Shown: positions 21,560-37,014 of the stretch, piece by piece
How the letters are laid out: every line of letters starts with the position of its first letter
Numbering within the stretch: position 1 is the first letter of the stretch
Origin: an uncultured bacterium
GTDB taxonomy: Bacteria; Auribacterota; UBA6266
DNA length: 37,100 nt
Assembly: GCA_965369805.1 (NCBI GenBank)
Contig: CBDURG010000002.1
Coordinates: 1 to 37,100, forward strand
Reading direction: 5' to 3'
Notes under the pieces: generated by a model
What the model saw: the letters and a program-made list of their open reading frames with translations, nothing else
Told to the model about the DNA's origin: nothing
The model's database searches: none
Position numbers and translations under genes: made by a program

Positions 21560-22357
21560 TTAGGTTCCTTCAACAAGGCTTTTTATGTACTCCTCTGTGG
21601 AATCTTTCGCGGAAATGGAGGTTGCCTCCAATGAACCTGTTACAAACTGCTGAACATAAGGATTGTTTGAATTCTTAATCTGGTCAGAGGTACCAAGCTC
21701 AATCACCCTGCCTTTGAATAAAACAGCCATTTTATCGGCAATCCTGAACGCGCTTTGCATTTCATGAGTTACCACCACGGATGTCATGCCAAGCTTCTTG
21801 CTTAAATCCATGATAAGTTTGTCAATAACAGCGGCAACAATAGGGTCGAGGCCGGCACCGGGCTCATCATAAAAGACTATGTGGGGATCAAGAGCTATAG
21901 CACGGGCAAGAGCCGCTCTTTTTTTCATGCCTCCGCTTATCTCCGCGGGCATTTTATTTTCAAAACCAACAAGCCCTACCTGCGCAATTTTCATTTTAAC
22001 TATTATCCCAATTATGCGTTTATCCAGTTTGGTATGTTCCTTAAGCGGTAAAGCTACATTTTCTCCAAGCGTTAGAGAGTTTAAAAGAGCTCCGCCCTGG
22101 TACAACATACCGAATTTACGCCTGACCACATCAAGCTCGTTGTCAGTCATATGGGTAATCTCATCTCCATCAATATAAACTTCCCCATCATCGGGTTTAA
22201 GCTGTCCGATCAATATTTTGAGCAGCGTGCTCTTGCCGCAACCGCTCCCTCCCATAATCACCATGGTTTGACCCTTTTCTATCTTGAGGTTAATACCATC
22301 AAGTACCCGGCGATTATCGTATATCTTAACCAGATTTTTTACTTCTATTATTGCCAT
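21560..22357 (-). CDS. mlaF: MlaF/Mkl-family ABC transporter ATPase
   Basis: GGSGCGKS, FGMLYQGGALLNSL, ISGGMKKR, YDEPGAGLDP, VVVTHE. Confidence 0.85.
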   Translation of the reverse strand: MAIIEVKNLVKIYDNRRVLDGINLKIEKGQTMVIMGGSGCGKSTLLKILIGQLKPDDGEVYIDGDEITHMTDNELDVVRRKFGMLYQGGALLNSLTLGENVALPLKEHTKLDKRIIGIIVKMKIAQVGLVGFENKMPAEISGGMKKRAALARAIALDPHIVFYDEPGAGLDPIVAAVIDKLIMDLSKKLGMTSVVVTHEMQSAFRIADKMAVLFKGRVIELGTSDQIKNSNNPYVQQFVTGSLEATSISAKDSTEEYIKSLVEGT

Positions 22358-22364
22358 TTTTCTC

Positions 22365-23156
22365 CTAAATAAAATAAAACCAGGCGTTAAACAAGCAATC
22401 TATAATGATTATAAACATAATTGATTGAACAACTGACTTAGTGGTGGAAATCCCAACCCCGGCGGAACCGCCCCTGACAGTAAGCCCATGATAACACCCT
22501 ATCATGGCTATAACAACCGCAAAGGCAACGCTTTTTAGCAGCCCCGTGCAGATATCTTTAAGGACCAGGCAATCAAACGTAAGCTTAAGATAATAGGCTG
22601 AATTCAGATGTAAATTAAAGCGGCCTATGACATATCCGCCCAACATCCCGACACAGTTAGCAACAATAGTCAGGCAGGGCAGCATGATAACAAGAGCAAG
22701 AAATCTGGGAACCACCAGAAACCTTATGGGTTTTAATGCCATGGTTTCAAGGGCATCAACCTCTTCGGATACAGTCATTGTCCCTATTTCCGCGGTTATA
22801 GCAGACCCCACTCTTGAAGCCACAACCACCGCGGCCAGGAAAGGGCCCAACTCCCTTGTAAACGAAACCCCGACAAGCCCGGCCATAAGCTCCTGGGTTC
22901 CTACCTGCTTCAACTGGTAAGATGTGAGCATTGCCAGCGTAATCCCGAAGAAAAAATTTACAAGGGCCACAATCGGAACGGACCCGACACCTATCAGGTT
23001 CATCTGAGCAAAAACCGCACCCGGCTTCAACATCTGGCCTTTAAAAGGCGCTATAAAAATCCAGTAAAGCGTCTGCATAAAAATCTTCCAGATGCTTCCA
23101 AGATGCCTGAAAAAATTCAAAGTTGGTTTGCCTAAACTCCCGAGAAAATCCTTCAT
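22365..23156 (-). CDS. mlaE: MlaE-family ABC transporter permease
   Basis: RELGP, RVGSAITAEIGTM..SEEVDALE, VVPR, GGSAGVGISTT.SVV. Confidence 0.9.
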   Translation of the reverse strand: MKDFLGSLGKPTLNFFRHLGSIWKIFMQTLYWIFIAPFKGQMLKPGAVFAQMNLIGVGSVPIVALVNFFFGITLAMLTSYQLKQVGTQELMAGLVGVSFTRELGPFLAAVVVASRVGSAITAEIGTMTVSEEVDALETMALKPIRFLVVPRFLALVIMLPCLTIVANCVGMLGGYVIGRFNLHLNSAYYLKLTFDCLVLKDICTGLLKSVAFAVVIAMIGCYHGLTVRGGSAGVGISTTKSVVQSIMFIIIIDCLFNAWFYFI

Positions 23157-23165
23157 CCAATTCTC

Positions 23166-23498
23166 CTAAAAAGCATTTATAGCCTCTTCTCTTGTCTTAT
23201 ATATCGAAAAAATTGAATCAAGTTTCGCTATCTCGAATATACCCCTGGTAGCATCATTCATACAGCAAAGCTTAAGGACACCATCATACATGTGCATTTT
23301 TTGAAAAACCTCGATAAGTGTGGCTAAGCCGGCACTGCTAATGTACCCCACATCCGCAAAATCGATAAGCAATTTCTTTTTCTGTTCCTTTAAAATTTCC
23401 GCAAAAAAATCACGTGCCTTAGGAGAAGTATATGAATCAACATCTCCTTTGATCTCGACTATTTCTATTCCTCCGCTGGAGACCCTTTTCAAATCCAT
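23166..23498 (-). CDS. STAS-domain anti-anti-sigma factor (RsbV/SpoIIAA-like)
   Basis: GDVDS, D...V.YISSAGL with the conserved phospho-Ser; start placed at MDLK behind a GGAG RBS. Confidence 0.88.
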   Translation of the reverse strand: MDLKRVSSGGIEIVEIKGDVDSYTSPKARDFFAEILKEQKKKLLIDFADVGYISSAGLATLIEVFQKMHMYDGVLKLCCMNDATRGIFEIAKLDSIFSIYKTREEAINAF

Positions 23499-23569
23499 AA
23501 ACTCTCCTTCCATTTCATTCATCCGCAGCCGGAAATCAACAACCCGGATAAAAAAGCAAACTTACACCC

Positions 23570-23998
23570 CTATGGGCTTTTAAGGCGTTTTACCATTATA
23601 AGTTCATTTCCATCTTCATTATCCAGGTTATACATCACACTATCCATAACTTTTTTCATCAAAAAAATCCCTAACCCGCGTGGTTTTATGTCATCCAACT
23701 TTCTCCCCCAAAGTTTCACAGGGTCGAGTTTTTTTCCATAATCCCCCAACAGAATCTCTATCTCTTCATCCTTCAAAGATAGTTTTACAAAAATATCCTT
23801 TGTTTTATCGCCGCCGTAAGCATGTTCTATAATATTGGCACACGCTTCGTCAACCGCAAGAACCATATCATCTATATCTTTGCGCGGAAACTCCGCGATA
23901 ACAGCAACTTCCCTTATTACTGACCTGATTAGTTTAAGATATTTGTCATCACTTTTCACCTTAAGAATAACTTGATTATGTCCAATATTCACTTCCAT
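23570..23998 (-). CDS. RsbW/SpoIIAB-like anti-sigma Ser kinase (HATPase)
   Basis: LAVDEACANIIEHAY, DYG, RGLGIFLM..VMD, GNELIM. Confidence 0.9.
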   Translation of the reverse strand: MEVNIGHNQVILKVKSDDKYLKLIRSVIREVAVIAEFPRKDIDDMVLAVDEACANIIEHAYGGDKTKDIFVKLSLKDEEIEILLGDYGKKLDPVKLWGRKLDDIKPRGLGIFLMKKVMDSVMYNLDNEDGNELIMVKRLKSP

Positions 23999-24019
23999 AA
24001 TAACCCCATACTTAATAAC

Positions 24020-25342
24020 TCAATGTTTCAATGTTGCAGCGACCAGTGTTAAATCATCATGCTGCGGAGCTCCCTTTGAAAAATCAACAACCTTATCAAG
24101 GATACACTCAATTGCTTTTTCGGGATTAATGTTCCTGTCTTTTATAATATCAAAAAATCTCTTTTTCCCAAACTCTTCCCTGGATATATTTCTCGCTTCA
24201 ATAATCCCATCCGTATAACCGATTATGGTTTCGCCGCCTTTTAACTCCAGAACCGTTTCCCCAAATTTCACATCCGGGACAACCCCAACAGGAAGCGCCT
24301 GCTTACAAACAGCTTCACTGATGTTACCCCTGCCATCGCGAATCAGAAAAGGGTAATGCCCGGCATTCACAGATGTAAGAGTTTTCTGTCTTAAATCAAC
24401 CATACCGATAAGAAGGGTTATAAACATCCCAAGAATGCTTTTCTCCACTAAAATGTTATTTATCTTTTCCATAAGTTTTCCGGGTTTAGCTAAGTTAGCT
24501 AAGAGAGAAGCATGAAATCTTATTTCGCTCATAGCTTTAACCATAAAAAGGGCCGCGGGTACACCCTTTCCCGAAACGTCTCCGACAACAATTCCAACCC
24601 GTCCGGCGCCAAAATCGAGAAAATCATAAAAATCCCCCCCGAGCTCCAGCGCGGGAATGTTTTTTGCGTCAAATAACAAACCGTCATACTCCGGAAATTT
24701 GGAAGACAGAAAATTTTGCTGTATCTGATGTCCAATTTTCAGTTCATCTTCAACTCTTTGCTTTTCAAGGAGACTCGCGTGCATCCTCGCGTTCTCAATC
24801 GCTATGGCAGCCATACTGGAAAAATTTTCCAAAAGCTTCTGGTCTTCTGAATCAAATCCCTTCTTATGTTTGGGGTTCAAGACCTGAAGAACCCCAATTG
24901 TTGTATCCTTTACCTTCAAAGGAACACATAAAACGGCCCGTGTCTTAAACCCTGAATATTCATCAGCTCTTTTAAAATGTCTCGGGTCATTCTCCACATC
25001 ATTTATTAAAACCGGTTTTTTTTCTTTGGCAACCCAGCCGGCTATTCCCTTCCCCAATTCAAGCCTGATTTCTTTCACTTTGTCGCCTGATTTTCCATGA
25101 GCTATCTTAAAAACCAGTTCTTTTGCGCTCTTGTCTATCAGCATAAGAGCGCTTGCTTCTACCTCCATAATTTTTCCCGCAACTTTCATAGCGCGATCAA
25201 GAAGTTCGTCTATATCAAGAGTGGAGTTTATTATCTCACTAACAGCAAACAGCTTCTTGAAATCTGATAATTTCTGCTGTAATTTTTCTAAATTTCTTCC
25301 CTTTTCAGCCGCGTCAGTCAATTCTCTTCCCTTTAACCCCAT
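24020..25342 (-). CDS. GAF-domain PP2C/SpoIIE Ser phosphatase (RsbU-like)
   Basis: N-terminal GAF domain; GGDFYD, GDVSGKG, NAGH, YTDG, DDLT. Confidence 0.92.
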   Translation of the reverse strand: MGLKGRELTDAAEKGRNLEKLQQKLSDFKKLFAVSEIINSTLDIDELLDRAMKVAGKIMEVEASALMLIDKSAKELVFKIAHGKSGDKVKEIRLELGKGIAGWVAKEKKPVLINDVENDPRHFKRADEYSGFKTRAVLCVPLKVKDTTIGVLQVLNPKHKKGFDSEDQKLLENFSSMAAIAIENARMHASLLEKQRVEDELKIGHQIQQNFLSSKFPEYDGLLFDAKNIPALELGGDFYDFLDFGAGRVGIVVGDVSGKGVPAALFMVKAMSEIRFHASLLANLAKPGKLMEKINNILVEKSILGMFITLLIGMVDLRQKTLTSVNAGHYPFLIRDGRGNISEAVCKQALPVGVVPDVKFGETVLELKGGETIIGYTDGIIEARNISREEFGKKRFFDIIKDRNINPEKAIECILDKVVDFSKGAPQHDDLTLVAATLKH

Positions 25343-27251
25343 ATATCCTAACCTTTTTGTCTTTCCCCTTTACTGAAACCTCATCCAGGAAATTTATCTC
25401 AAAATCATCCTTTACACAATTATAAGTTGACTCAGCTACTATAACCCTGTAAGGATATTCCCTTGTAAGAGCCTGAACTCTCGATGCAAGATTTACATTA
25501 TCCCCGACAACAGTATAGTCATAGAACCGGCTTGAACCCATATTTCCAACCATCATAAGCCCGGTATTGATCCCAATTCCAATGCCTATAGGCTCAATCC
25601 CTTTTTCAACAAATTCCCTTTGAAGTACCTTCAGTTCTTCGAGCATATCAAGGGCGGCAAGAACCGCGAGTTTCGCATGGCCTTTTTGTTCTACCGGAGC
25701 ATTCCAAAAAGCCATAATTTCATCACCAATATATTTATCAAATGTCCCATCATGTGAAAGTATAACCCTGGTCATCCTGTCCAGGTATTCGTTAAGCACC
25801 GGAACTACCTCTTCAGGGGCTTTTTTCTCACAATAAGGAGTAAAACCCTTAATATCGGCGAACAACACTGTAATATCCTTCCTTTCACCGTGAAGATTCA
25901 ACTTTGAGGGATCCCGCAAAAGCATTTCCATTATATTATTTGAAATATACCGTCCAAGGATTTTCTTAACATACTTTTTATCTTTTGACTCAACCATATA
26001 TTTGTATACAACAGCGCTTCCAAAACAGATGCTCATAGCCGTATATGGAGCAACAATATCTATATACAAATTATGGTTTATAAAAAACCAGAAAGCAGCT
26101 AATATAAACCCCGCGACAAAAACAACCGAACATGTAACATAAAACCATGCCCTATCGGAAAGTTGAATAAAACCGACAGCACCGGAAAGCAATAAAATTA
26201 TCAGCAGGTTCCACGCAAAAAGAGGATTTTTTATATAATCCTTTAAAAGCACTGTATTCAAAGCATTGGCATGAATAAGCAATAACGGGAACTTCTCCGG
26301 TGAAATAGGAATGAGGCCTATATCATATCCGCCTGTCATACCAACACCGTAAATAACCATCTTCTCAGAATAATCTAATAAAGGAACAACCGGGGGTTTA
26401 CCCTCTGACATTAACTTGTCTGAATTTAATATCTGTATCGCGGGATCTCCCTTAAATTCTTTTAAACCACCCCGAAAATTAATCCTCAAATTCCCGCGTT
26501 TATCAACAGGAATTTTTATGTCGGTGCCGGAGATAGAAATAACACCTTTCTCAATTCTTATATCAGATATTTCTTTATTCAAGAACCTGCAAAGAAGCAC
26601 GAGGGAAAAAGAAGGATAAACACTCCCGGAATATTTTATAAGCAATGGCGCTTTTCTAACCACGCCGTCAGATTCCTCGGGAGCATTGGTGAAGCCCAGT
26701 AATCCACAATTTCTCAGCTCAGCAACAGGAAGCTGATAACTCTCTGCCCCTGGAATTTTGTTTACAAAATCATCATTAACAATATTCAGCCGGTACTTGT
26801 CCAGAGTCCCATCCGATTCCTCTTTAATATAGTCCCTATAATAAATCCCTTTGTCATCTTGTTTCATTCTGAAATAATAGGGCAAGATAGTTCTTCCTGT
26901 AAGGGATGTACAATATTTAAGCGCCTCAAGACCTTTTTTCTGACTCTCGTATGATTCAAATCTTATATCAACGCCAACCGCCGCGACATTTGTCCGGGCC
27001 AGAAAATTTAAAACCCCGGCATGATTAATCCATGGCCACGGCCATTTATCACCGCGCTGGACAGACTGGTCGTCAACAACAATTATTCTTATAGTATCGG
27101 AAATATTTTCCCCCACACCCATTTTCATCATATAGTCATAAAAAATATTCTTGAAGTGACGAATAGGAGGAGTAAGGCAAAAAAGATACCCTGAAAGGGC
27201 AGAAAGAATCGGTATTATTAAGCATATCACTAATATTTTTGATTTCTTCAT
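25314..27251 (-). CDS. CHASE2-domain class III adenylate cyclase
   Basis: N-terminal TM, CHASE2 (WPWP, DGVVR, HANALN), 3 TMs, then the catalytic domain FADIKGFT, DKYIGD, DYTVVGD.VNLASR. The Lys/Thr specificity residues point to ATP. Start moved to MKKSK at 27251 because the longer ORF overlaps the divergent gene. Confidence 0.9.
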   Translation of the reverse strand: MKKSKILVICLIIPILSALSGYLFCLTPPIRHFKNIFYDYMMKMGVGENISDTIRIIVVDDQSVQRGDKWPWPWINHAGVLNFLARTNVAAVGVDIRFESYESQKKGLEALKYCTSLTGRTILPYYFRMKQDDKGIYYRDYIKEESDGTLDKYRLNIVNDDFVNKIPGAESYQLPVAELRNCGLLGFTNAPEESDGVVRKAPLLIKYSGSVYPSFSLVLLCRFLNKEISDIRIEKGVISISGTDIKIPVDKRGNLRINFRGGLKEFKGDPAIQILNSDKLMSEGKPPVVPLLDYSEKMVIYGVGMTGGYDIGLIPISPEKFPLLLIHANALNTVLLKDYIKNPLFAWNLLIILLLSGAVGFIQLSDRAWFYVTCSVVFVAGFILAAFWFFINHNLYIDIVAPYTAMSICFGSAVVYKYMVESKDKKYVKKILGRYISNNIMEMLLRDPSKLNLHGERKDITVLFADIKGFTPYCEKKAPEEVVPVLNEYLDRMTRVILSHDGTFDKYIGDEIMAFWNAPVEQKGHAKLAVLAALDMLEELKVLQREFVEKGIEPIGIGIGINTGLMMVGNMGSSRFYDYTVVGDNVNLASRVQALTREYPYRVIVAESTYNCVKDDFEINFLDEVSVKGKDKKVRIYGVKGKRID

Positions 27252-27465
27252 ATACGCATACAAGGTTAACACAGAATAATTCAGATTAGTATAAATTTGT
27301 CTAAGGATAAAGAAGAAGGGAATATCTGAGGTAAAAATATGAAAAACCCCAAATAAATTTGCTTGTCTGTCATCATGTTTAACGCTATCATACGTGAAAG
27401 AGAAGTGATAATCAGCTCTCCTATATGGCGGGCCGGCAAAAAAATATCCAAGGGGATAATACACT

Positions 27466-28791
27466 ATGAAAAAGCTATTGTTATTCTTCACAATACTGTC
27501 TTTAGTTTCACCCGCGCTTGTCCTTTCAGGAACTATAAAAACCACTAATGTTTCCGGAAATGTGTGTTACACCAGGCCTCCTGAAACTGCATGGCAAACG
27601 TTAAAACCGGAAATGACTCTCATAAAAGAGAGTTCCATCCGCGTTGAGACCCTGTCTCTTGCGGACCTTGAAATAGATAAAAACAATAAATTCAGAATAA
27701 TGGAAAACACTGAAATCAAAATTCAGGCTCTTGAAGACCCTGAAACTCTGGAAAGCGGTAAGGTTATCAAGCTTGTAAGCATAAAACTTTATAACGGTTC
27801 AATCGGGGCAAAACTGAATAAACTTCCGGAAGATGTTCGCGTAAATATTGAAGGCCCTTCGGCTGTTTCCGGGTCAATGGGAACAGGCTTCATTGTTTAT
27901 GCTGATAAAAAAATCCTTAATACTTGCGTTTCTGTAATCGACAGCAATGTAATGGTCTCAAGCTTTGATTCACCCGATAAAAGTATTGTAGTAACCCCTT
28001 TAAAGGAAGTAGCAGTAACCCCATGGAAATCAGCATCTCTGAGAGCGAAAGGAACCGGTGTTCTCTCCGAAGCTATACTCGGAAAATTAAAAATTGAAAA
28101 AATCAAAGGCGCAATACCTGTTTACACTGAGGGACCCGCGGACAATAAAGAAAATGCTAAAAACGCCGCTCTTTTTAACCTAAGCGAGAAAATTTATTCG
28201 GTAAAAATTTCCGATAAGAATACTATTTCAGATATAGTGTATTGTGACCCGGAGATAGCTTCGAAGCTTCTTGATGAAATTTCAAACGCAAAAATCACAG
28301 CTTATATAACTAATGAATCGGGAACGGTAACAGCTAAGGCAGAAATAACACTCGATGTCATAGAAAAAGCAGTCAATGAAAAAATAACTTCTGTCAGAAT
28401 ACCTGTTCAAAGAATAACACTCAAAGAATACGGAAGTAAATTCGGGCCGCTGGCCAGGGTTACAACAAGAAGAGCGGCTGTGATTGACAGTTACAGAAGG
28501 CTGGCGGAAAAAATCTACGGAACCGTAATAGACTCAAAGACTACTTTAAATGATTACGCGATAGAAAATGATATCGTAAAACAAAGTGTGGAAGGCATGG
28601 TGAAAGGAGCCCAGGTCGTAAAGGAAAAATATTATTCCGACGGTTCAATAATTGTCGAAGCCACGATCCCGGGAAATAGAATAGTATCCGAAATTTCATC
28701 AGTAAAACCCGATATAAACTTTGGGACAAATTACGTTTCTTCGCCTGAAAATATCACATTAAAATCATATTCATCTTTTAGGGGTATTTAA
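27466..28791 (+). CDS. exported FecR-like domain protein fused to LPP20/FlgP-like domain(s)
   Basis: Signal peptide; FecR-like region (VSGNV...W..L, IMENTEIKI, L..G.I, P.AVSGSMGTGF.V); C-terminal RRAAVIDSYRRLAEKIYG..IDS.TT..D......D.V...V.G.VKGA. Confidence 0.7.
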   Translation: MKKLLLFFTILSLVSPALVLSGTIKTTNVSGNVCYTRPPETAWQTLKPEMTLIKESSIRVETLSLADLEIDKNNKFRIMENTEIKIQALEDPETLESGKVIKLVSIKLYNGSIGAKLNKLPEDVRVNIEGPSAVSGSMGTGFIVYADKKILNTCVSVIDSNVMVSSFDSPDKSIVVTPLKEVAVTPWKSASLRAKGTGVLSEAILGKLKIEKIKGAIPVYTEGPADNKENAKNAALFNLSEKIYSVKISDKNTISDIVYCDPEIASKLLDEISNAKITAYITNESGTVTAKAEITLDVIEKAVNEKITSVRIPVQRITLKEYGSKFGPLARVTTRRAAVIDSYRRLAEKIYGTVIDSKTTLNDYAIENDIVKQSVEGMVKGAQVVKEKYYSDGSIIVEATIPGNRIVSEISSVKPDINFGTNYVSSPENITLKSYSSFRGI

Positions 28792-29510
28792 TGTTCGTTT
28801 TTCTAAGACTTGCACTTGCCCATTTCCTTGCTGACTTTCCGTTTCAGACTTCAGAAATTTATAATCTGAAAAGAAGAAGGTTGCGGGGCCGGATCTTTCA
28901 CGGAACAATTGTAGCAATAATGTCTTTTGTTCTTCTACTGCCTTTCTATAAAAACATATGGGTATGGGGAATCTGCCTCTTTATAGGGATAACACATTCT
29001 TTGATCGACTGGGCAAAACTGGTGTACACGGATAAGAAACAGAATGCGAACCATTTTCTGGGTTTTATAATTGACCAATCAGCTCACCTTACAATAATTT
29101 CTATTATCTTTTTAACACCTTTAAAAAACATTGTTTCAGCAAATATGCCAAATCTAACGATCAATACTATTTACAATAATAACATTTATATAATTCACGC
29201 AATTTGTTATATCGCCGTCACTTTTGGTTTTATATATTTTATCGATACTTTCAGGATGACCTATTTAAAAAGCATTTACAAACCATTGGACACAAAAGAA
29301 AAGGCCATTGGAATTATAGCAAGAGGAATCATCCTTACGCTGGTTGTCCTCCCTGGGGATTTTTACCTGGCAATTGTCCCGGTTATATTAGCTGAAACAT
29401 ATTTGCTAAAATCAGCTGATTTAAAATCAAGGTTTGCTAATTTTATTATCGGAACAATCCCCGTTATTATCATAGGATTACTGCTAAGGGGCCTAGGGGC
29501 AAGGGGATAA
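28791..29510 (+). CDS. DUF3307-family membrane protein
   Basis: LAHFLADFPFQ, H..I, THSLID..K, F..DQ.AH; overlaps the upstream stop (TAATG). Confidence 0.75.
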   Translation: MFVFLRLALAHFLADFPFQTSEIYNLKRRRLRGRIFHGTIVAIMSFVLLLPFYKNIWVWGICLFIGITHSLIDWAKLVYTDKKQNANHFLGFIIDQSAHLTIISIIFLTPLKNIVSANMPNLTINTIYNNNIYIIHAICYIAVTFGFIYFIDTFRMTYLKSIYKPLDTKEKAIGIIARGIILTLVVLPGDFYLAIVPVILAETYLLKSADLKSRFANFIIGTIPVIIIGLLLRGLGARG

Positions 29511-29577: not shown

Positions 29578-30471
29578 CTAACTCTGTCTTACCAGGTATC
29601 CTCTTTCAAATTCTCCGCCCGCGATAATTTTAGCTTTGGAAAATTTTTCCTCAACAGCATACACCTGAACTCTTCCAGTCTTTTCCGATTCGCATCCCAA
29701 ACTGATACCTGTGTCAGGGTCAATCAAATCTTCCCCAACCGAATATATGGCAAACTCATCTCCAACCTGAACGCCTGAGTCCGCGCCACAGTTTAAATAA
29801 ACATCCTCTCCTTTTACAGTAACAACCTTTCCCTGCCAGGAAACATTTTCAAGCTCAGCGCAAATCCATGCTATTGCCACATCAATAGCAGCCTGTGTCG
29901 CTTTGCCAAGAGGCGCTTTTTTAAAATTGGAGGTTCCAATTCCCCAGCCTGAACGCGCATAACCTATACTCATGCCGGAGGACTTGGCCTTTCCTTCAAC
30001 CCTTTTTGATGCAAGAACCTGGCCGGTGGCCACATCATAAAGCCTCACATTAACCGCAACATGCGCAAAAGAACCCGAGCCTCCAAGGGAAAACCCTTTT
30101 ATTGTGATGCCGGCACCGCCCCCTGAACTTCTTTCAGAAAATTCTGTTACCGCTCCGCTCACAAGTACCTGGGCATTCAACAGTTTCCCAAGTTCTGGAG
30201 CACCAACTTTGGTTGTCCTTCCACTTGCAGAAAAATCCTGTTCCTGAAGGATACCCTGAATATTCTGCCTTTCCACGACAATAAAACTGCCCGAATTGGT
30301 AAGGGAAGTGGTAACCATTTCTGCCATACCGCTGCCAAGATTCCATTCGGAACTGAACCCCGCTTTATTTTCAAAATCAGAAACTGCTATGGTTTTCTTT
30401 ATGCCGGCACCGGCATAAGAAACCAAAAGAACAAAAACCAAAACAAAGATGCATGATAAAAACCTTTTCAT
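29578..30471 (-). CDS. CsgG/HfaB-family protein with FlgT-like C-terminal domain (paralog 2)
   Basis: IAVSDFENK, F.VVER..I..IL.EQ, GAVTEF, V.VRLYDV.TG.V; C-terminal VYLN.G...GV..GD.F......LIDP.TG..LG. Confidence 0.8.
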   Translation of the reverse strand: MKRFLSCIFVLVFVLLVSYAGAGIKKTIAVSDFENKAGFSSEWNLGSGMAEMVTTSLTNSGSFIVVERQNIQGILQEQDFSASGRTTKVGAPELGKLLNAQVLVSGAVTEFSERSSGGGAGITIKGFSLGGSGSFAHVAVNVRLYDVATGQVLASKRVEGKAKSSGMSIGYARSGWGIGTSNFKKAPLGKATQAAIDVAIAWICAELENVSWQGKVVTVKGEDVYLNCGADSGVQVGDEFAIYSVGEDLIDPDTGISLGCESEKTGRVQVYAVEEKFSKAKIIAGGEFERGYLVRQS

Positions 30472-30534
30472 AAAAACCCCCCGCTGTAATTATAGTAGTT
30501 TGTTTGCCTTAATTTGTAATTATAGCCCATCCTT

Positions 30535-31590
30535 CTATTGAATTATTACTTCTTCAAGCACTGGCGGCGGAGGTGGCAGAAATTTAATTATATCTCCCCT
30601 CTCAAATTTTCCGCCCGAAACAGAATCCGCAAGCGAAAACTTATCCTTAACTTCAAAAACCTTAACCAATCCTATTTTTTTTGTCTCAAAACCAAGAGAC
30701 ACTCCTGAATCAGGATCAATAAGCTCCTCGCCCTTTCTGTAAACCTCAAATTCATCACCGGCTTTAACATTGGAACTCGCGCCGCAATTAAGATATATTT
30801 TACCGCCTTTGATAGTAACAACAGTACCTTGCCATGAAACCTTCTGCATCTCCAAGCAGATATAATAAACAGCTTTATCAATCGCTTGTTGAGTTACCTT
30901 ACCAAGAGGAGACGCTTTAAAGTTATCAAAATCAATGCCCCAATCACCTTCAGAATAACCAACGCTAAGGCCTGAAACATTCCCCTTGCCTTCAACACGC
31001 TTAGAAGCAATTACTTCACCGGTAGTAGTATCATACATCCTTATATTAAGGGCCACATGAGCAGTGGCTGATTTTACCCCCAGAGAAATCCCTTTATATT
31101 GAAAAAGACTTCCAGAATCAAAAAAACGCTGTGAAAATTCTGTTATGGCTCCGCTTACAAGAATCTGGGTATTTAAAAGGCGCCCTATCTCAGGTGCTCC
31201 GACATTAATTGTCCTGCCGCTTACAGAAAAATCCTGTTCCTGAATAATAGCCTGGATATTCTGGCGTTCAACAACAATAAATCTGTTCGTGTTCACCAGA
31301 GTAGTGGTAAGCATCTCTGCCATACCGTTTCCGAGATTCCACTGCGCTTGAGCCCCTGCCTTATTCTCAAAATCGGCAACCGCTACAGTCTTTCTCGGCC
31401 CAACAATAGGAGGAAGCACTATCTGCTGGCTAACTTTCTTTTTCTTCTTTTCCCGGGCCGGCCTTTCTTTTCGCTCAGAAGATGACGTTCTTCTTCTCGC
31501 GGCAGCGGCAGCGGCACCATCAAGGCCGATAACAGCAACAATCAAAAAAGACATCCCCACTATAAAAAACCATCTTTTCATAAACAGCAT
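30535..31590 (-). CDS. CsgG/HfaB-family protein with FlgT-like C-terminal domain (paralog 1)
   Basis: Same motifs as 29578-30471, plus a basic N-terminal extension and a poly-Pro C-terminal tail; start placed at MLFMKRW behind an AGGGG RBS. Confidence 0.8.
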   Translation of the reverse strand: MLFMKRWFFIVGMSFLIVAVIGLDGAAAAAARRRTSSSERKERPAREKKKKKVSQQIVLPPIVGPRKTVAVADFENKAGAQAQWNLGNGMAEMLTTTLVNTNRFIVVERQNIQAIIQEQDFSVSGRTINVGAPEIGRLLNTQILVSGAITEFSQRFFDSGSLFQYKGISLGVKSATAHVALNIRMYDTTTGEVIASKRVEGKGNVSGLSVGYSEGDWGIDFDNFKASPLGKVTQQAIDKAVYYICLEMQKVSWQGTVVTIKGGKIYLNCGASSNVKAGDEFEVYRKGEELIDPDSGVSLGFETKKIGLVKVFEVKDKFSLADSVSGGKFERGDIIKFLPPPPPVLEEVIIQ

Positions 31591-31670
31591 CTTAATACCC
31601 CTATAGGTTCTTAGCACACCACAAATTATATACAGATGAATACACCATTCAATATAAAAATGTTACAGTC

Positions 31671-32804
31671 TTATAAAAAATCTAAATCTATCCTGTTTTG
31701 AGTTTTTGCCTTAATTTTTACATCAACATCGGGAAGGGTATTTATTATCTCTTCAAAACCTTTATATAATGCCCCGTCAATTGTTACATCTATAATCACG
31801 ACATCCTTTGTAAAACTTCTTTCGTTTACGCTTCTTACGCCCCTGACCTGCTCAAGTGCCTTCTCAAAAGCAAGGCGGTTATCGGCGTCAGCATGAAAGC
31901 CAACAATCTGAATATCCATTGTATTGTAAACTTTGGTTCTCCAGTTTTCAACTATTTGGTCCATCATTTTCCCTGCCAGCTCCACACCTGCTTCCTTGGC
32001 TGCTTTGCGCGCCGAAGGGACTCTTCCTCCAGCCCTTGCCTGGGCACTGGTACCGTCTGAAACTATAACCTGGGCAGAATCAACATCAATAGCTTTTGCG
32101 GTAGCCTGCGCTTCATAGGCAAAGACACAAACGCCATAGGGCTGGCTGGAATCAACTAAATCGGAAGAGACCTGTCCAACCACAATAACCTCAGCTCCGA
32201 ACCTCCTGCCAAGAGCAACAGCTTCCGTAGGATTTTCATAGTAAACAGTAGCATCCCGTAATTTCACGGCTTCCATTTGAGCTTTATCTATCAGTTTAAA
32301 ATCGTTGTTTAAAAAACTCTTTTCTATTCCGGTTTGAACCGTTTGTCCGGGTTGTTCAAGGCCATCTACGGTCTCAGAAAAAACAATCATGATTCTGGGT
32401 TTGTTAAGCCTTTCCTTGACTATATTAAAAGCTTTAAGGTTCTTTCTTAGGGCACCCAGTAAAACAACAGCTTTAACCCTTGCTTGATAAACCCCTCCTT
32501 CACCATTATTATCATCTACAATTTCATAACTCTTCACATATCCTTTTACCTCTGAATAAACCTGGTCATCCAGCAGCTGAAAATTCTGGACCATAGTTTC
32601 AGAATCAATAAGGCTGCCCACCGCCTGTTCCACAGCATTCCTTAAAGCACGGTTAATCGCCTCATCTCTCGCACTGAGAACAGCATCCGGGCCAGCCCCC
32701 CTTACGGCAGCCATGCCCTTCGCCACTATAGTAGTCTCCATCTGAGCAAAAACGCAAGTTGTTACAAATATACAAACGAAAAATAATAATATTAACCGTT
32801 TCAT
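31671..32804 (-). CDS. exported FlgT N-terminal-domain-like protein (FlgT_N + TolB_N/CsgG-like middle domain + small C-terminal domain)
   Basis: Signal peptide; A.G.A...ARDEAI..ALRNAVEQAVG..IDSET.V.N; KPRIMI; GAEVIVVG. Confidence 0.7.
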   Translation of the reverse strand: MKRLILLFFVCIFVTTCVFAQMETTIVAKGMAAVRGAGPDAVLSARDEAINRALRNAVEQAVGSLIDSETMVQNFQLLDDQVYSEVKGYVKSYEIVDDNNGEGGVYQARVKAVVLLGALRKNLKAFNIVKERLNKPRIMIVFSETVDGLEQPGQTVQTGIEKSFLNNDFKLIDKAQMEAVKLRDATVYYENPTEAVALGRRFGAEVIVVGQVSSDLVDSSQPYGVCVFAYEAQATAKAIDVDSAQVIVSDGTSAQARAGGRVPSARKAAKEAGVELAGKMMDQIVENWRTKVYNTMDIQIVGFHADADNRLAFEKALEQVRGVRSVNERSFTKDVVIIDVTIDGALYKGFEEIINTLPDVDVKIKAKTQNRIDLDFL

Positions 32805-32815
32805 TTCAACCTCCC

Positions 32816-32941
32816 CTATTCGACAACAACTTCTCTTGTTTCAACCACGGTTCTTTCGGTAACAACATACTTTTCGGTACATCCCACAATTACAATTGAA
32901 ATAACAGAAAACAAAACTATCAAAATTACAGCCTTTTTCAT
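32816..32941 (-). CDS. small 41-aa lipoprotein (not in ORF track)
   Basis: MKKAVILIVLFSVISIVIVG|CTEKYVVTERTVVETREVVVE*; GAGGGG RBS and lipobox IVGC; fills the gap in the operon and its stop overlaps the next gene's RBS. Confidence 0.8.
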   Translation of the reverse strand: MKKAVILIVLFSVISIVIVGCTEKYVVTERTVVETREVVVE

Positions 32942-32997
32942 CGGGCCCCTCTCTTTCTAAACCAATTGTATTTACCATCCAAAAACGTCAATTTATT

Positions 32998-34302
32998 TTA
33001 TCTGATTTTGTTTATGGAATCCCATAAACCCCGCAAGAAAATTGAAGCTGTTACCTCAACGCTTCCATCCTCAAGAAAAACAGGCTCGCTTACCTCCGCA
33101 CCTGCCATAAAAGTTTTGACTTCCGCATTCACCTGGTCATTTTGAACAGCAAAATCCCTGACAGTTGTACTCGCGTTAATCTTTACTCCATAAATAATCT
33201 CAGCAAGATTTCTTCTTGCGTCTACCTCAGCCGCCCTGGCCGCATTAAGCTTTGCAATGGTCCCGATCTCACCTTCTCTCGGAACCCCAGAACCTTTGGC
33301 TGACACAGCCTGAGAAGCCCAGGAAGGCGCGGAAACAGCTTGGGAAGGAGCCTGAGACACAGGCCCCTTCTCTGTATATTTCTCCGGAGGAACACCGGAA
33401 CCAGTCGCTCTTATCACGCGAATATTCTGCTGAGTTACAACCTCTTCCCACCTTACTTTCTTCCATCTCACTTTTCTAAATCTATAGCCTCTTCTTTCAA
33501 AGCGTTTCCATATTTCATGAACTTCTTTTATTATATCCACTATAGTTACTTCAACATCACATTCAGCTATTCCGTCAGGCAAATATCTATACGGACCTGA
33601 CAAACGAATGCCTTTTATATATGTGTCCAGTGCCGCATTTATCTGATCATTCTCTGCCACAAAGTCTCTGACATAAGTACTCGAAGTGATTCTTACTCCC
33701 TTAACCTTTTCAGCGAGATTTCTGTACGCGTCAACCTTTGCAGCTCTTTCAGCCATCAACCTGCCGCGAGCTGTAACTCCTTCCCAGCCGGGTATCCCAT
33801 CAGTAAGCCTGGCAGGTTTAGTCCGCGAATTCTCAGAAGGATCAACGGTTCTGATCGTCCCCGAACCTTCAACCTCTATCACCTTATACTCCTTGTTGTA
33901 AGTCTCTATCTGCTGAATTTTTGTGTGCGTCCAGAAGAGAAACCTTGTTTTCTTATAGTATGTTTCAATAAATTTGACTACCTGTTCTATCGTAAGCCCG
34001 GCTCTTAAAGTGTAAACTTCACCATCCCATCTATCGCTCCCCGGAACAATGGCAGCACCTTTTATAAAATGATCAAACGATGCATTGATCTGGTCACTTT
34101 CCGCGACAAAATCCCTGACATAGGTATTAGCGTCTATTCTAAGCCCTTTCACTCTTTCAGCAAGATTTCTATAGGCATCAACCTTTGCCGCCCTTTCAGC
34201 CATAAGCTTCTGCTGCCCCTTGGATGCAGCACAAACCGGCATACAAACCAGAGGAATAATCAAACTCGCCATCAAAACCACTACTCCTAATTTCCTCAAC
34301 AT
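32998..34302 (-). CDS. exported protein with three LPP20/FlgP-like repeats
   Basis: Three copies of [LMAERAAKVDAYRNLAE.VKG.RI...TYVRDFVAE.DQINA....IKG]; signal peptide; start placed at MLRK behind a GGAGGA RBS. Confidence 0.8.
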   Translation of the reverse strand: MLRKLGVVVLMASLIIPLVCMPVCAASKGQQKLMAERAAKVDAYRNLAERVKGLRIDANTYVRDFVAESDQINASFDHFIKGAAIVPGSDRWDGEVYTLRAGLTIEQVVKFIETYYKKTRFLFWTHTKIQQIETYNKEYKVIEVEGSGTIRTVDPSENSRTKPARLTDGIPGWEGVTARGRLMAERAAKVDAYRNLAEKVKGVRITSSTYVRDFVAENDQINAALDTYIKGIRLSGPYRYLPDGIAECDVEVTIVDIIKEVHEIWKRFERRGYRFRKVRWKKVRWEEVVTQQNIRVIRATGSGVPPEKYTEKGPVSQAPSQAVSAPSWASQAVSAKGSGVPREGEIGTIAKLNAARAAEVDARRNLAEIIYGVKINASTTVRDFAVQNDQVNAEVKTFMAGAEVSEPVFLEDGSVEVTASIFLRGLWDSINKIR

Positions 34303-34375
34303 TTCATCCTCCTTCATTACCATAGGTTATCGATTGTGGGTTATAGGTTCCAGGGAATACAAATTTCCCTTGACC

Positions 34376-34873
34376 CTAATTAGGTTTCATTCCTAACCAT
34401 TCCTGTTCACTTACTACAAAAGCTTTTCTGTTAACTGAAATCAATTCATCATTATAAACCTTTATACCCTCTCTTTTGCAAACTCTTTTTTTACTAATTC
34501 CAGGCATTTCCAGAATAATCTGAACCATTCCGTCTTTGTAATATCTTGTTTCTACACATCTTGCGCCAATTATATATCCATTTGATTTTATGTTGCCCGA
34601 CTTTATAACCCTACCTGAAAAACCAGCAAGGGCCCGGGTAAGATTCCTATAAGCGTCAATGAGTGCCGCCCGGCGAGCCATAAGCTTCTTTTGAGATTTC
34701 CCATAATACGAAGATGCCGGAGGCTTCCCCGTACCAACAACTCTTATCTTCCCTCCCTCAACTATAACACAATTCAATGAGAATAATCTTTCATCTCCCA
34801 GGACATCTTCAGGGAAGAGGCAGGTGCCGCAAAAAGCGGCACCCAGAACTAATGTGATTATAAGCTTTTTCAT
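34376..34873 (-). CDS. exported protein with one LPP20/FlgP-like domain
   Basis: V.GTG.P...KLMARRAALIDAYRNL...GYIIGA...RY..DG.V.I matches the repeats of the downstream gene. Confidence 0.7.
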   Translation of the reverse strand: MKKLIITLVLGAAFCGTCLFPEDVLGDERLFSLNCVIVEGGKIRVVGTGKPPASSYYGKSQKKLMARRAALIDAYRNLTRALAGFSGRVIKSGNIKSNGYIIGARCVETRYYKDGMVQIILEMPGISKKRVCKREGIKVYNDELISVNRKAFVVSEQEWLGMKPN

Positions 34874-34877
34874 AAGA

Positions 34878-35231
34878 TTACCACCAACAATTGTTTTCTT
34901 CTACAACTACAACAGGGGCAGAATAGTTAGTAGCATATGTAGTTGTATACGTTGTGTATGAAGGGACATAATACGTGTTTGAAGAACGGTACCTTCTCGA
35001 TGAATAATGCCTTGGTGTTTGATAATAACGTCTTGAACGTCTTGGCGCGTAATATGAGGAACTATAATATGCTCTCTGCTGTGGAAGTAAATTCCCGCTT
35101 AAAAACTGATACGCTGTAACTCCTGCAAGTATTTTGCCTGCTGTTGCCCATTCTTTCTCTCCCGCTGAAGCAGTTGTAGTAACTCCTGTTGCCATTGATA
35201 CTGCAACCAACATTAAAATTAGCTTTTTCAT
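34878..35231 (-). CDS. secreted Tyr/Ser/Arg/Thr-rich low-complexity protein
   Basis: AGGAGG RBS, signal peptide ending ASA, GEKEWATAGKILAG helix, then a Tyr-rich tract and C-terminal PVVVVEENNCWW. Confidence 0.8.
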   Translation of the reverse strand: MKKLILMLVAVSMATGVTTTASAGEKEWATAGKILAGVTAYQFLSGNLLPQQRAYYSSSYYAPRRSRRYYQTPRHYSSRRYRSSNTYYVPSYTTYTTTYATNYSAPVVVVEENNCWW

Positions 35232-35261: not shown

Positions 35262-35277
35262 AGCAAAAGCCATGCCA
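35262..35277 (-). promoter_or_regulatory. sigma54 (-24/-12) promoter
   Basis: Minus strand reads TGGCATGGCTTTTGCT, i.e. TGGCA...TTGC with exact GG-N10-GC spacing, 30 nt upstream of the 35231 ATG. Confidence 0.85.
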
Positions 35278-35406: not shown

Positions 35407-35514
35407 GCCGGATAGAATATACGATATAATCCCTTATGAAATAGATAGTTATAGAATATTGCTTCAAAATGACACACATCACATAATGAAACATGTTGAA
35501 AAAGGAAATTGACG

Positions 35515-37014
35515 ATGGAAACAAAACAAACCACTGAACTTTTTAAAGATATCGGAAAAACAAACCTTCTAAAACTTTTTGAAATAAATCAGATCATAAA
35601 TTCGACTCTGGACCTTACAGAAGTCCTGGAACGAGTACTGAAAACGGCCAGTAATGTTTTAAATTCTGAAGCAAGTTCTATAATATTGATTGAAAAAAAC
35701 ACTAATTATCTTGCATTTAAAACAGTTACCGGTAAAAAGGCAACCGAAATAAAGAATTTTAAGATAAAGGCTGGACAGGGAATTGCAGGATGGGTAATAA
35801 ATGAAGGGAAACCTACCATCTCCAATAATGTCCAGGAAGATAAACGATGGTTCGGAGATATAAGTAAGAAAATAAATTACCCAACACGTTCAATTATCTG
35901 CGCCCCCATAAAGATAAGAGAGCAAATAGTTGGAGTAATAGAAGTTATCAATAACAAATCCGGCAACTTCAATGATAAAGACCTTTCTTTGCTAGTCGCA
36001 TTTACAAACCAGGCGGCTATCGCCATTGAAAATGCCCGCCTTCACAATGAAATAGGAATAGAAGTCAAAAACTTGAAAACCCAAATACCCCAGTCAACAA
36101 AAATGATAGGCTCAGGCAATAAAATGAAGAGCGTTTATGAACTAATAAATACCGTCGCGGGAACTGACTCTACCATATTGATTCGAGGTGAAAGCGGCAC
36201 CGGCAAAGAACTCGCCGCAAGGATGATCCACATAAAAAGCCCAAGGAAACATCACCCCTTCATATGTATCAATTGCTCTGCTCTACCGGAAACATTGCTT
36301 GAAAGCGAACTCTTTGGACATGAGAAAGGCGCTTTTACAGGAGCTGTTGCCAGGAAAATAGGAAGATTTGAGCTTTGCGCAAAAGGAACTATTTTCCTGG
36401 ATGAAATCGGAACGCTATCACCCCATATCCAGGTAAAACTTTTAAGGGTTCTGCAGGAAAAAGAATTTGAAAGGGTAGGCGGAACAGAAACTATAAGATC
36501 CGAGGCCCGCATAATTGCGGCTACCAACGAAAACCTCGAGAAAGCAATCGAGGAAGGACGTTTCAGGGAAGACCTGTATTACAGAGTAAAGGTAATAGAA
36601 CTTTACATGCCTCCGCTAAGAGAACATAAGGAAGATATCCCCGACCTGCTTACATACCTTATTGAAGAACAGACAAAAGCTATGGGAAAAGTAATAACGT
36701 CAATAGAACCCAGGGCAATGGATATTCTTCTTTCATACAGCTGGCCCGGAAATATCAGAGAGCTTAAAAATACAGTCGAGAGGGCCATGGTCCTGGGAAC
36801 AGGTAAAATTCTCAAAGCAGAAGACCTTCCTGCCGAAATAAGGTCAAAACGCGCCCCAATAACAACTGATTGGATGTTAAAATCTGCTGAAAAAAATCAC
36901 ATAGAAAAAGCTGTTCAATATACAACCGGCAACAAGAGTAAAGCAGCCAAACTTCTCGGAATTTCCAGGAACAGGCTAGATAGAAAAATTAGGGAATACA
37001 ATATCAAAATCTGA
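35515..37014 (+). CDS. GAF-domain sigma54-dependent transcriptional activator (NifA/FhlA-like bEBP)
   Basis: N-terminal GAF domain; GESGTGKE, ESELFGHEKGAFTGA, FLDEIG, FREDLYYR, WPGNIREL; Fis HTH GNKSKAAKLLGISR. Confidence 0.93.
   Translation: METKQTTELFKDIGKTNLLKLFEINQIINSTLDLTEVLERVLKTASNVLNSEASSIILIEKNTNYLAFKTVTGKKATEIKNFKIKAGQGIAGWVINEGKPTISNNVQEDKRWFGDISKKINYPTRSIICAPIKIREQIVGVIEVINNKSGNFNDKDLSLLVAFTNQAAIAIENARLHNEIGIEVKNLKTQIPQSTKMIGSGNKMKSVYELINTVAGTDSTILIRGESGTGKELAARMIHIKSPRKHHPFICINCSALPETLLESELFGHEKGAFTGAVARKIGRFELCAKGTIFLDEIGTLSPHIQVKLLRVLQEKEFERVGGTETIRSEARIIAATNENLEKAIEEGRFREDLYYRVKVIELYMPPLREHKEDIPDLLTYLIEEQTKAMGKVITSIEPRAMDILLSYSWPGNIRELKNTVERAMVLGTGKILKAEDLPAEIRSKRAPITTDWMLKSAEKNHIEKAVQYTTGNKSKAAKLLGISRNRLDRKIREYNIKI

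Follow-up and report, generated by a model that had tools for sequence, protein, structure and literature searches.

The 37,100-nucleotide stretch of DNA analysed here (the window) is contig C2 of a metagenome-assembled genome (MAG) of the phylum Auribacterota, and at positions 29578-35231 it carries seven co-oriented open reading frames (ORFs) on the minus strand, g1 to g7, hereafter the module. With a little better than even confidence, we read the seven genes as one sigma54-dependent operon for a free-standing, signal-induced ring or disk complex that is attached to the outer membrane and independent of flagella. The complex would be a relative of the Vibrio H-ring (FlgT, FlgP and FlgO) and of the Campylobacter basal disk (FlgP, FlgQ and PflE), with H-ring or basal-disk parts placed in a flagellum-free, separately regulated assembly, and the same joint judgement covers all of these statements.

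The genome comprises 1.79 Mb in 174 contigs and is 88.9% complete; among public genomes, it is most closely related to MAGs labelled Candidatus Auribacterota or Aureabacteria. In the text below, related loci are designated by L and a number, and families of the phylum by f and a number. An initial annotation, made from the sequence of the window alone, had listed a Tyr-rich peptide, proteins with one and three LPP20 domains (LPP20x1 and LPP20x3), a micro-lipoprotein, an FlgT_N-like protein and two proteins combining CsgG and FlgT_C domains, all with export signals. The ORFs lie where it placed them, separated from g1 to g7 by 4, 52, 56, 11, 53 and 63 nucleotides (nt), and its calls of the individual components hold, apart from the label FlgT_N-like, which proved too narrow. 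The export signals, judged by eye from a basic N-terminus, a hydrophobic core and an A-x-A-type site, are likewise agreed to be present on all seven proteins.

CsgG-family proteins

The last two genes, g6 (30535-31617; 360 amino acids, aa) and g7 (29578-30471; 297 aa, with a signal peptide), encode proteins that are 60% identical (BLASTP E-value 5e-127). Both belong to the CsgG family, with Pfam CsgG matches of 125.3 bits (2.7e-36) for g6 and 142 bits (2.1e-41) for g7 against a cut-off of 20.8. Each has in addition an FlgT_C-like domain, also TsaP-like in g7, that scores above the cut-off of 27 bits in g7 (28.1 bits, 2.9e-6) and below it in g6 (25.4 bits, 2e-5). The two proteins also touch the FlgT_M model (1.5e-5 for g6) below its cut-off, with 21.1 and 25.7 bits against 31.2. 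Among 48 aligned homologues of g7, the CsgG model matches all 48, FlgT_C 41 and FlgT_M 36 (E-value at most 0.01), and the LpoB model touches 38. The Pfam FlgO model is touched by only two of the 48, weakly, so the FlgO-like identity considered earlier for g6 and g7 was dropped; unlike the Vibrio H-ring, the module has no member of the FlgO family.

The AlphaFold2 model of g7 (predicted local distance difference test score, pLDDT, 74) contains long paired strands at residues 102-146 and 152-181. Its best fold match by VIA-align is FlgT in situ (8z5n_0, residues 75-376; Z 19.2, root-mean-square deviation (rmsd) 4.4, 252 residues aligned), followed by CsgG (6lqh_A; Z 15.5, rmsd 2.9, 169 aligned). 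As modelled, g6 and g7 are CsgG-family proteins with a two-domain fold that best matches the middle and C-terminal domains of FlgT (FlgT M+C). Between its signal or anchor segment and the CsgG-like domain, g6 has at residues ~28-62 an Ala run and then a Lys/Arg-rich, very basic linker; this linker is missing from g7. Some longer relatives of g7 contain TPR and PDZ domains and others tandem CsgG-FlgT_C copies, the tandem units being found in P0250, P0251 and P0253.

No usable lipobox was found in g6 and g7, as the initial annotation had stated, and a lipobox-like motif is present in only four of 120 homologues of g7. In this respect they differ from CsgG (PF03783; structures 4UV3, 6SI7 and 6LQH), a lipoprotein according to the titles of its Protein Data Bank (PDB) entries, and also in having the extra FlgT_C/TsaP-like domain; the part of g7 that corresponds structurally to CsgG residues 47-252 is shorter by 17 residues. 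In the predicted hairpins of g7, conserved hydrophobic or aromatic residues alternate with small ones (122/124/127/129 and 167/169/171/176/178), and the tips are charged. The conservation of these amphipathic hairpins together with the absent lipid anchor suggests that g6 and g7 insert in the outer membrane. Four co-folded copies of the CsgG-like domain of g7 (residues 23-215) gave a best score of 0.29 relative to a mark of 0.42, a result that was weighed neither way.

The same proteins could be read as the core of a curli-like secretion system, in which g6 and g7 form a CsgG-type oligomeric beta-barrel pore across the outer membrane, g1 is its substrate (fibre, glue or matrix) and the LPP20 and FlgT-like proteins are accessories in the periplasm. 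CsgG itself is a nonameric pore, with a transmembrane barrel made of two amphipathic hairpins. The CsgG scores far above the Pfam cut-off, shared by all 48 homologues, are in favour of this reading, as are the first transmembrane hairpin, which aligns without gaps between the g7-family profile (48 homologues) and Escherichia coli CsgG, and the alternation of residues in both hairpins. Against it, the modelled fold of g7 is nearer to FlgT than to CsgG, the lipid anchor that defines CsgG is missing from g6 and g7, and the HL-rings of V. cholerae, as described in the available part of a preprint, are lipid-anchored to the membrane and form no pore (bioRxiv 10.64898/2025.12.02.691832). Overall, we consider a curli-like pore unlikely, and the properties of g1 given below bear on it further.

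The C-terminal part of the g7 family matches TsaP in type IV pilus structures by profile (3jc8, 7.8e-10; 6ve2, 1.1e-8), in addition to Pfam FlgT_C. TsaP forms a ring around PilQ, and a similar role, as a collar around a secretin (of type II secretion or a type IV pilus) or around a different large channel of the outer membrane, may be envisaged for the module. FlgT wrapping the LP-ring is another precedent; in V. cholerae FlgT_C serves as the scaffold of the T-ring, and FlgH is bound by FlgT_M, according to the same partly available preprint (bioRxiv 10.64898/2025.12.02.691832). The genome contains six genes for secretins (PF00263), two on contig C5 and one each on C37, C49, C62 and C85, an unusually high density for 1.79 Mb, and the window a gene for a pseudopilin with an N-terminal methylation motif and a DUF1559 domain (18228-18716, minus strand). 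However, no secretin or pilus gene adjoins the module in any locus looked at. Moreover, the TsaP chains are named 'LysM domain protein' in the PDB, whereas g6 and g7 have no LysM match, and the N-terminal part of the g7 family is a CsgG-family domain. A collar function therefore appears improbable to us, more so than a curli-like pore.

FlgT-like protein

The g5 gene (31671-32804) encodes a secreted protein of 377 aa that is not a lipoprotein and consists of an SHS2/FlgT_N-like N-terminal domain, a middle domain of the TolB_N/CsgG fold and an alpha/beta C-terminal domain. By Pfam it matches FlgT_N below the cut-off (E-value 0.0081, 17.1 bits against 28.8). The best Foldseek matches of its AlphaFold2 model (pLDDT 80.2) are FlgT structures, 8z5n_0 (7e-13) and then 3w1e (1.4e-12). 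In VIA-align, residues 24-292 superimpose on FlgT 1-266 (Z 11.4, rmsd 12.0, 216 aligned), and residues 130-292 on TolB_N (Z 12.1, rmsd 3.3, 127 aligned). The homology to FlgT_N claimed for g5 thus stands, and, judged from the model, the protein is a homologue of the N-terminal and middle domains of FlgT (FlgT N+M). In Vibrio (3W1E, 8Z5N, 9YDS) the N, M and C domains of FlgT are joined in one chain, while here the three are spread over two kinds of protein, g5 with N+M and g6 and g7 with M+C.

The g5 family has no Pfam model of its own, and FlgT_N is touched by 21 of 44 members at an E-value of at most 0.01. Among 1.84 billion cluster representatives the family numbers 9104 at E-values up to 0.001, 3965 up to 1e-10 and 889 up to 1e-30, and the matches are mostly full-length. 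A lipobox-like motif is present in seven of 120 homologues. Several members (P0358, P0319, P0346, P0378 and P0315) are fused to caspase, transglutaminase plus TPR, SH3_3 or Ig-like domains; no partner that would name a function is common to the fusions of g5 and g7 relatives. The Leptospira protein LipL46 (NCBIfam NF033164) aligns with g5 over residues 42-333 (2.7e-11) and, judging by the sequence match, probably belongs to this FlgT-like family as a distant relative; g5, with 42.8 bits, is far under the equivalog cut-off of 400 and has no lipobox.

The fold of the middle domain of g5 is that of TolB_N, PelC, CsgG and LptE (Z ~12), and it also matches LpoB. According to PDB titles, the fold relatives returned by the searches include formers of outer-membrane rings, namely CsgG, the PelC dodecamer, the FlgT/LPHT ring and the TraT decamer. 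The same matches could mean that the module proteins are envelope homeostasis factors, TolB_N/LpoB/LptE-fold proteins that, as monomers, would regulate or tether peptidoglycan or lipid transport enzymes. The matches of g5 to TolB_N, LptE and LpoB are consistent with such a role, together with the weak LpoB and TolB_N matches of g7, the frequent contact of its homologues with the LpoB model and a module that adjoins surA (and thrS) in locus L007. But many outer-membrane lipoproteins have this fold, which gives no pointer to function, the LpoB score of g7 is below the cut-off (18.5 against 22.3 bits), and the FlgP-type hairpin LPP20 repeats, the FlgT_C domain and the conserved multi-gene set would be left unexplained. 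We regard this as the least probable of the alternatives.

LPP20/FlgP-like proteins

Two genes upstream encode proteins of the LPP20/FlgP type. The product of g3 (32998-34323, 441 aa) contains three tandem FlgP-like domains, matched by Pfam LPP20 (PF02169) in three stretches with 63.4 bits (2.8e-17; cut-off 25.9). It is similar to solved FlgP chains of Campylobacter jejuni (9hmf_C, 1.4e-6), V. cholerae (9yds, 2.3e-6) and V. alginolyticus (8z5n_2, 3.3e-6). The alignment of its first repeat with residues 22-93 of V. cholerae FlgP has one single-residue gap, and this nearly gapless match implies that the beta-hairpin insert is present in g3. In the available part of the literature, ring formation by LPP20/FlgP proteins is linked to this insert, and FlgQ is described as resembling a two-FlgP repeat (PMC12222027). 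The hairpin-bearing FlgP fold is therefore shared with the Campylobacter basal disk, although g3 has three repeats where FlgQ has about two. CsgG-family partners, of which the module has two, do not appear in the published description of that disk, as far as it is available.

The adjacent gene g2 (34376-34873) encodes a protein of 165 aa with a divergent single LPP20/FlgP-like domain. It yields no Pfam match at an E-value of at most 0.01, yet BLASTP aligns it to all three g3 repeats (2e-7, 4e-6 and 2e-4), with gaps that make its hairpin insert 8-15 residues shorter. Its position 5' of g3 is kept in relatives. Neither protein has a canonical lipobox by eye. FlgP and FlgO of Vibrio are lipoproteins in the partly available description, whereas the large proteins of the module are predicted not to be lipidated.

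Micro-lipoprotein and Tyr-rich protein

The smallest gene, g4 (32816-32941), codes for 41 aa, with the lipobox IVGC and a mature peptide of 21 aa, CTEKYVVTERTVVETREVVVE, rich in Val and Glu. Between one and four micro-lipoprotein genes are located between the LPP20x3 and FlgT-like genes in all 14 Auribacterota-type loci that have both, 13 of which were detected by a regular expression and one (L021) by eye; an extra match to the expression in L022 looks spurious. Most of the peptides terminate in a Val/Glu-rich strand of the form E-x-VV-E/Q. No micro-lipoprotein was found in L007 or in the Omnitrophota loci L008 and L028, where the corresponding intergenic gaps are short. In the flagellate family f4 (L018, 11662-12202; L027, 7508-8089; L029, 10965-11692), three or four copies are present, and the mature peptide opens with Cys-Thr/Ser-Tyr-His/Asn-x-His/Tyr-Tyr.

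A comparable protein is known from Campylobacter. PflE is a lipoprotein of 57 aa needed for the outer-membrane localisation of FlgP in C. jejuni; FlgP of C. jejuni is independent of its own lipobox cysteine, and FlgP of PflE-encoding Helicobacter species has no predicted lipobox (bioRxiv 10.1101/2025.04.02.646747, available part). In both cases a tiny lipoprotein, of fewer than 60 aa, accompanies FlgP-like proteins that are, or are predicted to be, non-lipidated. The Auribacterota module differs in its non-flagellar context and in having one to four copies.

The first gene, g1 (34878-35231), encodes a Tyr-rich mini-protein of 117 aa, with 15 Tyr among the 94 residues past the predicted signal peptide. 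The signal peptide is followed by a conserved Gly-zipper-like hydrophobic segment, KEWATAGKILAGVTAYQFLSG, and a Tyr/Arg/Ser/Pro-rich tail, with VVVEENNCWW as the conserved C-terminal sequence. Pfam and NCBIfam searches with g1 gave zero matches, and the best score in the ESM Atlas was 0.86, under the threshold of 0.9 for a lead, so that the BA14K, PXPV and WXXGXW clusters found there are leads only. Counterparts of g1 occupy the same first position in L004, L013, L014, L017, L021 and L030, which with the window makes seven of the 14 loci examined, and share a signal peptide, a W-x-A-A-G...G...G hydrophobic segment, a Tyr/Pro/Arg-rich tail and, close to the C-terminus, a Cys. None was seen in the other seven (L018, L020, L022, L023, L027, L028 and L029). 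In family f1 the C-terminus of g1 (P-VVVV-EE) resembles the tails of the micro-lipoproteins, a sequence similarity that hints at the same docking partner for both.

With regard to a curli-like system, a first gene that encodes a low-complexity, Tyr-rich protein with a signal peptide would fit a substrate. On the other hand, the transmembrane-like Gly-zipper segment and basic tail are unlike a secreted fibre subunit, a g1-like gene occurs in only half of the loci examined, and the Omnitrophota loci L008 and L028 lack one.

Conservation and relation to flagella

Public MAG contigs and further genomes of the phylum show the same order of genes, and the arrangement is thus not due to chance. The full seven-gene order is found in L004, L013 and L014 and part of it in L003; the core, consisting of LPP20 gene(s), the FlgT-like gene and the CsgG-FlgT_C gene, is present in L007, L008, L017, L018, L020-L023 and L027-L030. 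The ratio of non-synonymous to synonymous changes (dN/dS) relative to near relatives is 0.34 for g2, 0.18 for g3, 0 for g4, 0.20 for g5 and 0.13 for g7; g4 differs from its counterpart in L014 by four synonymous and no non-synonymous changes. The genes of the module are under purifying selection.

Among the 31 window ORFs scanned, none matched flagellar or curli families, in agreement with the initial annotation, which had seen no flagellar or csgA/B genes in the window. Searches of the whole genome returned no match for FHIPEP (FlhA), Flagellin_N, FlgI or FlgH, and none for Curlin_rpt or CsgF, while control genomes were matched in the same searches; csgE was looked for in the window only. Hence, unlike the Vibrio H-ring, the module resides in the genome of an apparently non-motile bacterium, without matches to flagellum or LP-ring genes, and the curli-like alternative is weakened by the missing curlin and CsgF matches in addition to the patchy occurrence of the Tyr-rich gene. 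A holdfast anchor of the HfaB type was set aside; hfa and hfs genes were not noticed among those of the window, and the genome was not searched for them.

In 79 genomes of the phylum, the FlgT-like gene was found in 37 (25 of the 41 high-quality ones) and FlhA in 16. Both are present in 13 genomes, the module without FlhA in 24, FlhA without the module in three and neither in 39. Strict co-occurrence with flagellar genes, which had been named beforehand as the outcome that would contradict a non-flagellar role, is thus not observed: 24 of the 37 carriers have no FlhA. Whole families carry the module without FlhA, namely f1 (6/6, including the genome studied here), f12 (4/4) and f18 (8/8), and many of these genomes are 94-97% complete. 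A CsgG-FlgT_C gene is present in 35 of the 37 genomes with a g5 homologue and is adjacent to it wherever both are listed. Outside the phylum, five of 121 Omnitrophota genomes sampled contain an FlgT-like gene, two of them at full length, and the genome with locus L008 has no FlhA match.

The module might be a true flagellar accessory, either a relic in decay in non-flagellate lineages or a component of a flagellum that the incomplete assembly does not show. It is present in all four flagellate families, in 13 of 16 FlhA-positive genomes, and its closest solved relatives are all flagellar; flgO and flgP were inferred to be ancestral flagellar genes in a 2026 preprint, of which part is available (PMC13277936). 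However, four flagellar markers are missing here, and FlhA from all six genomes of the family, some of which are 96% complete. The intact reading frames and dN/dS values of 0-0.34 speak against decay, and the module has regulators and a promoter of its own. In the flagellate relatives examined, it also shows no linkage to flgI, flhA or other flagellar genes: in all five cases the contig of flgI differs from that of the module, and in four flagellate genomes 31 ORFs flanking the module were scanned, none of which matches a flagellar family, the neighbours being genes for aromatic amino-acid synthesis, MurJ, ABC transporters and the like. A true flagellar accessory, or a relic of one, is accordingly very improbable.

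Regulation and flanking genes

A sigma54-type promoter, TGGCATGGCTTTTGC (35263-35277, minus strand), is located about 32 nt 5' of the start codon of g1. It has one mismatch to the -24/-12 consensus of sigma54 promoters, TGGCAC-N5-TTGC, and is followed by an AGGAGG ribosome-binding site. A loose sigma54 pattern occurs in the whole window 24 times, with 23.9 expected, which is the chance level, and for this reason only conservation of position counts. A stricter motif is present 5' of the first module gene in eight of nine loci with an adjacent GAF-sigma54 activator gene (the window, L004, L013, L014, L017, L022, L023 and L030; the exception is L021). In six of the eight its distance to the first start codon is 32-50 nt, and in the others it lies 657 nt (L022) and 208 nt (L023) upstream of the LPP20x1 gene; the motif was also seen in L029. 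The promoter and terminator scan gave nothing convincing or informative regarding a terminator after g7 or a sigma70 site. A search of public sequencing runs for the sequence listed DNA runs with small shares of it, all below half of the query words, and no RNA run, a result that carries no information on expression or habitat.

The activator gene itself (35509-37014, plus strand) is divergent from the module and encodes a GAF-domain enhancer-binding protein (Sigma54_activat 2.8e-70, GAF_2 3.7e-22, HTH_8 2e-12). It occupies the same position in L004, L013, L014, L017, L021, L022, L023 and L030. On the other side, a gene for an integral membrane protein with a DUF3307 domain (28791-29510, plus strand; 5.5e-19) is convergent with g7, and DUF3307 genes adjoin the module in L003, L005, L006, L017, L020, L021, L028 and L030. 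Its start overlaps the stop of a gene for a secreted FecR-like protein with an LPP20 domain (27466-28791, plus strand). The latter matches Pfam LPP20 (4.2e-5) and, weakly, the FecR-type NCBIfam models Lsa33 and LipL45, and its orthologue in L008 combines LPP20 with Pfam FecR (4.8e-11). Divergent from this gene is one for a class III nucleotidyl cyclase with a CHASE2 sensor (25314-27545, minus strand; CHASE2 1.7e-36, Guanylate_cyc 3.3e-29), which adjoins the module also in L003, L005, L006, L017, L020, L021 and L030. The true start of the cyclase is probably internal to the listed ORF, because relatives align only from about residue 99.

The FecR-LPP20 protein is probably the periplasmic partner of the cyclase. 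The 'BiofilmReg' operon of Burkholderia likewise pairs a secreted FecR-domain protein with a CHASE2 membrane sensor; there, in the available part of its description, the second domain is LysM and the output a histidine kinase (PMC5192318), in place of the LPP20 domain and nucleotidyl cyclase found here. The super-locus of cyclase, FecR-LPP20, DUF3307, module and activator genes is present in families f12 (L017 and L030), f13 (L021) and f17 (L020), and partly kept in the Omnitrophota loci L008 and L028. From this gene order we infer a circuit in which the co-sensor acts on the cyclase, whose cyclic nucleotide would act on the GAF activator and thereby on the sigma54 operon. The module would thus have its own sigma54 and cyclase regulation, unlike the Vibrio H-ring.

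Proposed assembly

In the mechanism that we propose for an outer-membrane ring or disk, only Sec export rests directly on sequence, and the later steps are inferred. All products of the operon would be exported by Sec. Since the solved relatives of their fold, CsgG, PelC, FlgT and FlgO, all form rings, g6, g7 and g5 may oligomerise into one or more inner rings beneath the outer membrane, with the amphipathic hairpins of g6 and g7 dipping into or spanning it. The beta-hairpin inserts of the LPP20 proteins g2 and g3 would mediate their polymerisation into one concentric ring or several. The rings of V. cholerae are a 26-mer of FlgT and concentric 58-mers of FlgP and FlgO, as reported in the available part of the preprint (bioRxiv 10.64898/2025.12.02.691832). 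Exported components are common to both systems, and the ring assembly known for Vibrio is predicted for the module. By analogy with the action of PflE on FlgP, g4 might tether or chaperone the non-lipidated LPP20, FlgT-like and CsgG-like proteins, docking possibly through its C-terminal VV-E-VV-E strand, and g1 could be a lineage-specific accessory or cargo. The divergent GAF-sigma54 activator would switch the operon on, probably fed by the CHASE2 cyclase, and the FecR-LPP20 partner of the cyclase could report the state of the ring. The initial annotation had proposed that ring-forming modules build a different envelope machine; the homologies and the non-flagellar setting behind this proposal hold, and the nature of the machine is still a matter of prediction.

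Several observations weigh against this reading. The Pfam scores of g5 for FlgT_N and of g6 and g7 for FlgT_M are under the curated cut-offs, and the C-terminal domain of g5, as modelled, is without a match to FlgT_C. Oligomers, rings and membrane insertion of the module proteins are predictions from sequence and models, and both the docking of g4 and its homology to PflE are putative, by analogy. The topology of g1 is ambiguous: basic tails favour the cytoplasmic side by the positive-inside rule, the basic tail of g1 could be cytoplasmic, and its second hydrophobic segment and Arg-rich tail would fit an inner-membrane protein. If this topology holds, g1 would be outside any periplasmic complex. 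Of the 53 genomes of the phylum that have the CsgG-FlgT_C gene, 18 have no FlgT-like gene. Loci L010-L012 have it as a solitary gene between a recO-like gene and der (~7840-8830 in L010 and L012, 2852-3838 in L011), where it encodes a protein 48-49% identical to g7 and has no LPP20 or FlgT-like neighbours. These solo genes indicate that the CsgG-like protein can work without the rest, and they fit the autonomous pore of a curli-like system. The presence of the module in all four flagellate families, and in 13 of 16 FlhA-positive against 24 of 63 FlhA-negative genomes, a contrast between related genomes and so not a statistical test, leaves room for a flagellar role in flagellate lineages. Finally, with the genome 88.9% complete, absences from it are no proof.

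Other features of the window

At 21560-25342 on the minus strand, genes for MlaE and an ABC ATPase are directly preceded by those for a STAS protein, an RsbW-like HATPase_c_2 kinase and a phosphatase of the GAF-PP2C (SpoIIE) type. By its sequence, this region resembles a partner-switching module that has been joined to an operon for Mla-type lipid transport. Elsewhere on the minus strand, a Wzy_C O-antigen-ligase-like protein fused to TPR repeats is encoded at 16083-18122, and a Dpy19-like membrane protein (PF10034, 8e-9) beside a B12-binding radical SAM enzyme at 2-1267 and 1257-2711. The Dpy19 family is known from eukaryotic C-mannosyltransferases.

Implications

No published description of a non-flagellar FlgP/FlgT/CsgG module was found in the literature covered, which excluded most subscription journals and all supplements. 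New here are the assignment of the modelled g6 and g7 structure to FlgT M+C, the finding that the micro-lipoprotein is universal in Auribacterota-type loci, in parallel to PflE, the conserved positions of the Tyr-rich gene and of the regulator genes, the test for selection on the module genes and the comparison of module and FlhA occurrence across the phylum.

Vibrio and Campylobacter motors have extra outer disks that are regarded as inventions of the flagellum, and the part of the 2026 preprint that is available infers flgO and flgP to be ancestral genes of the flagellum (PMC13277936). The same parts are found here under purifying selection in flagellum-free lineages, with their own promoter and sensors, and the FlgT-like family extends to the 889 clusters of the strictest search. 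The non-lipidated CsgG-family proteins fused to an FlgT_C/TsaP-type domain are candidates for a new class of ring or pore in the outer membrane. The pairing of a very small lipoprotein with non-lipidated FlgP-like proteins would be a second, independent case of the PflE principle. Tentatively, and with clearly less confidence than for the complex as such, it may be suggested that non-motile bacteria maintain a free-standing, signal-induced disk of H-ring or basal-disk parts below the outer membrane, with non-lipidated large subunits, micro-lipoprotein tethers and cyclic-nucleotide feedback, that was either a pre-flagellar source of the motor disks or a survivor of a lost flagellum with a newly acquired function in the envelope. 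The module makes it testable whether the rings of these motors were recruited from a pre-existing envelope structure or whether such structures may persist after flagellar loss.

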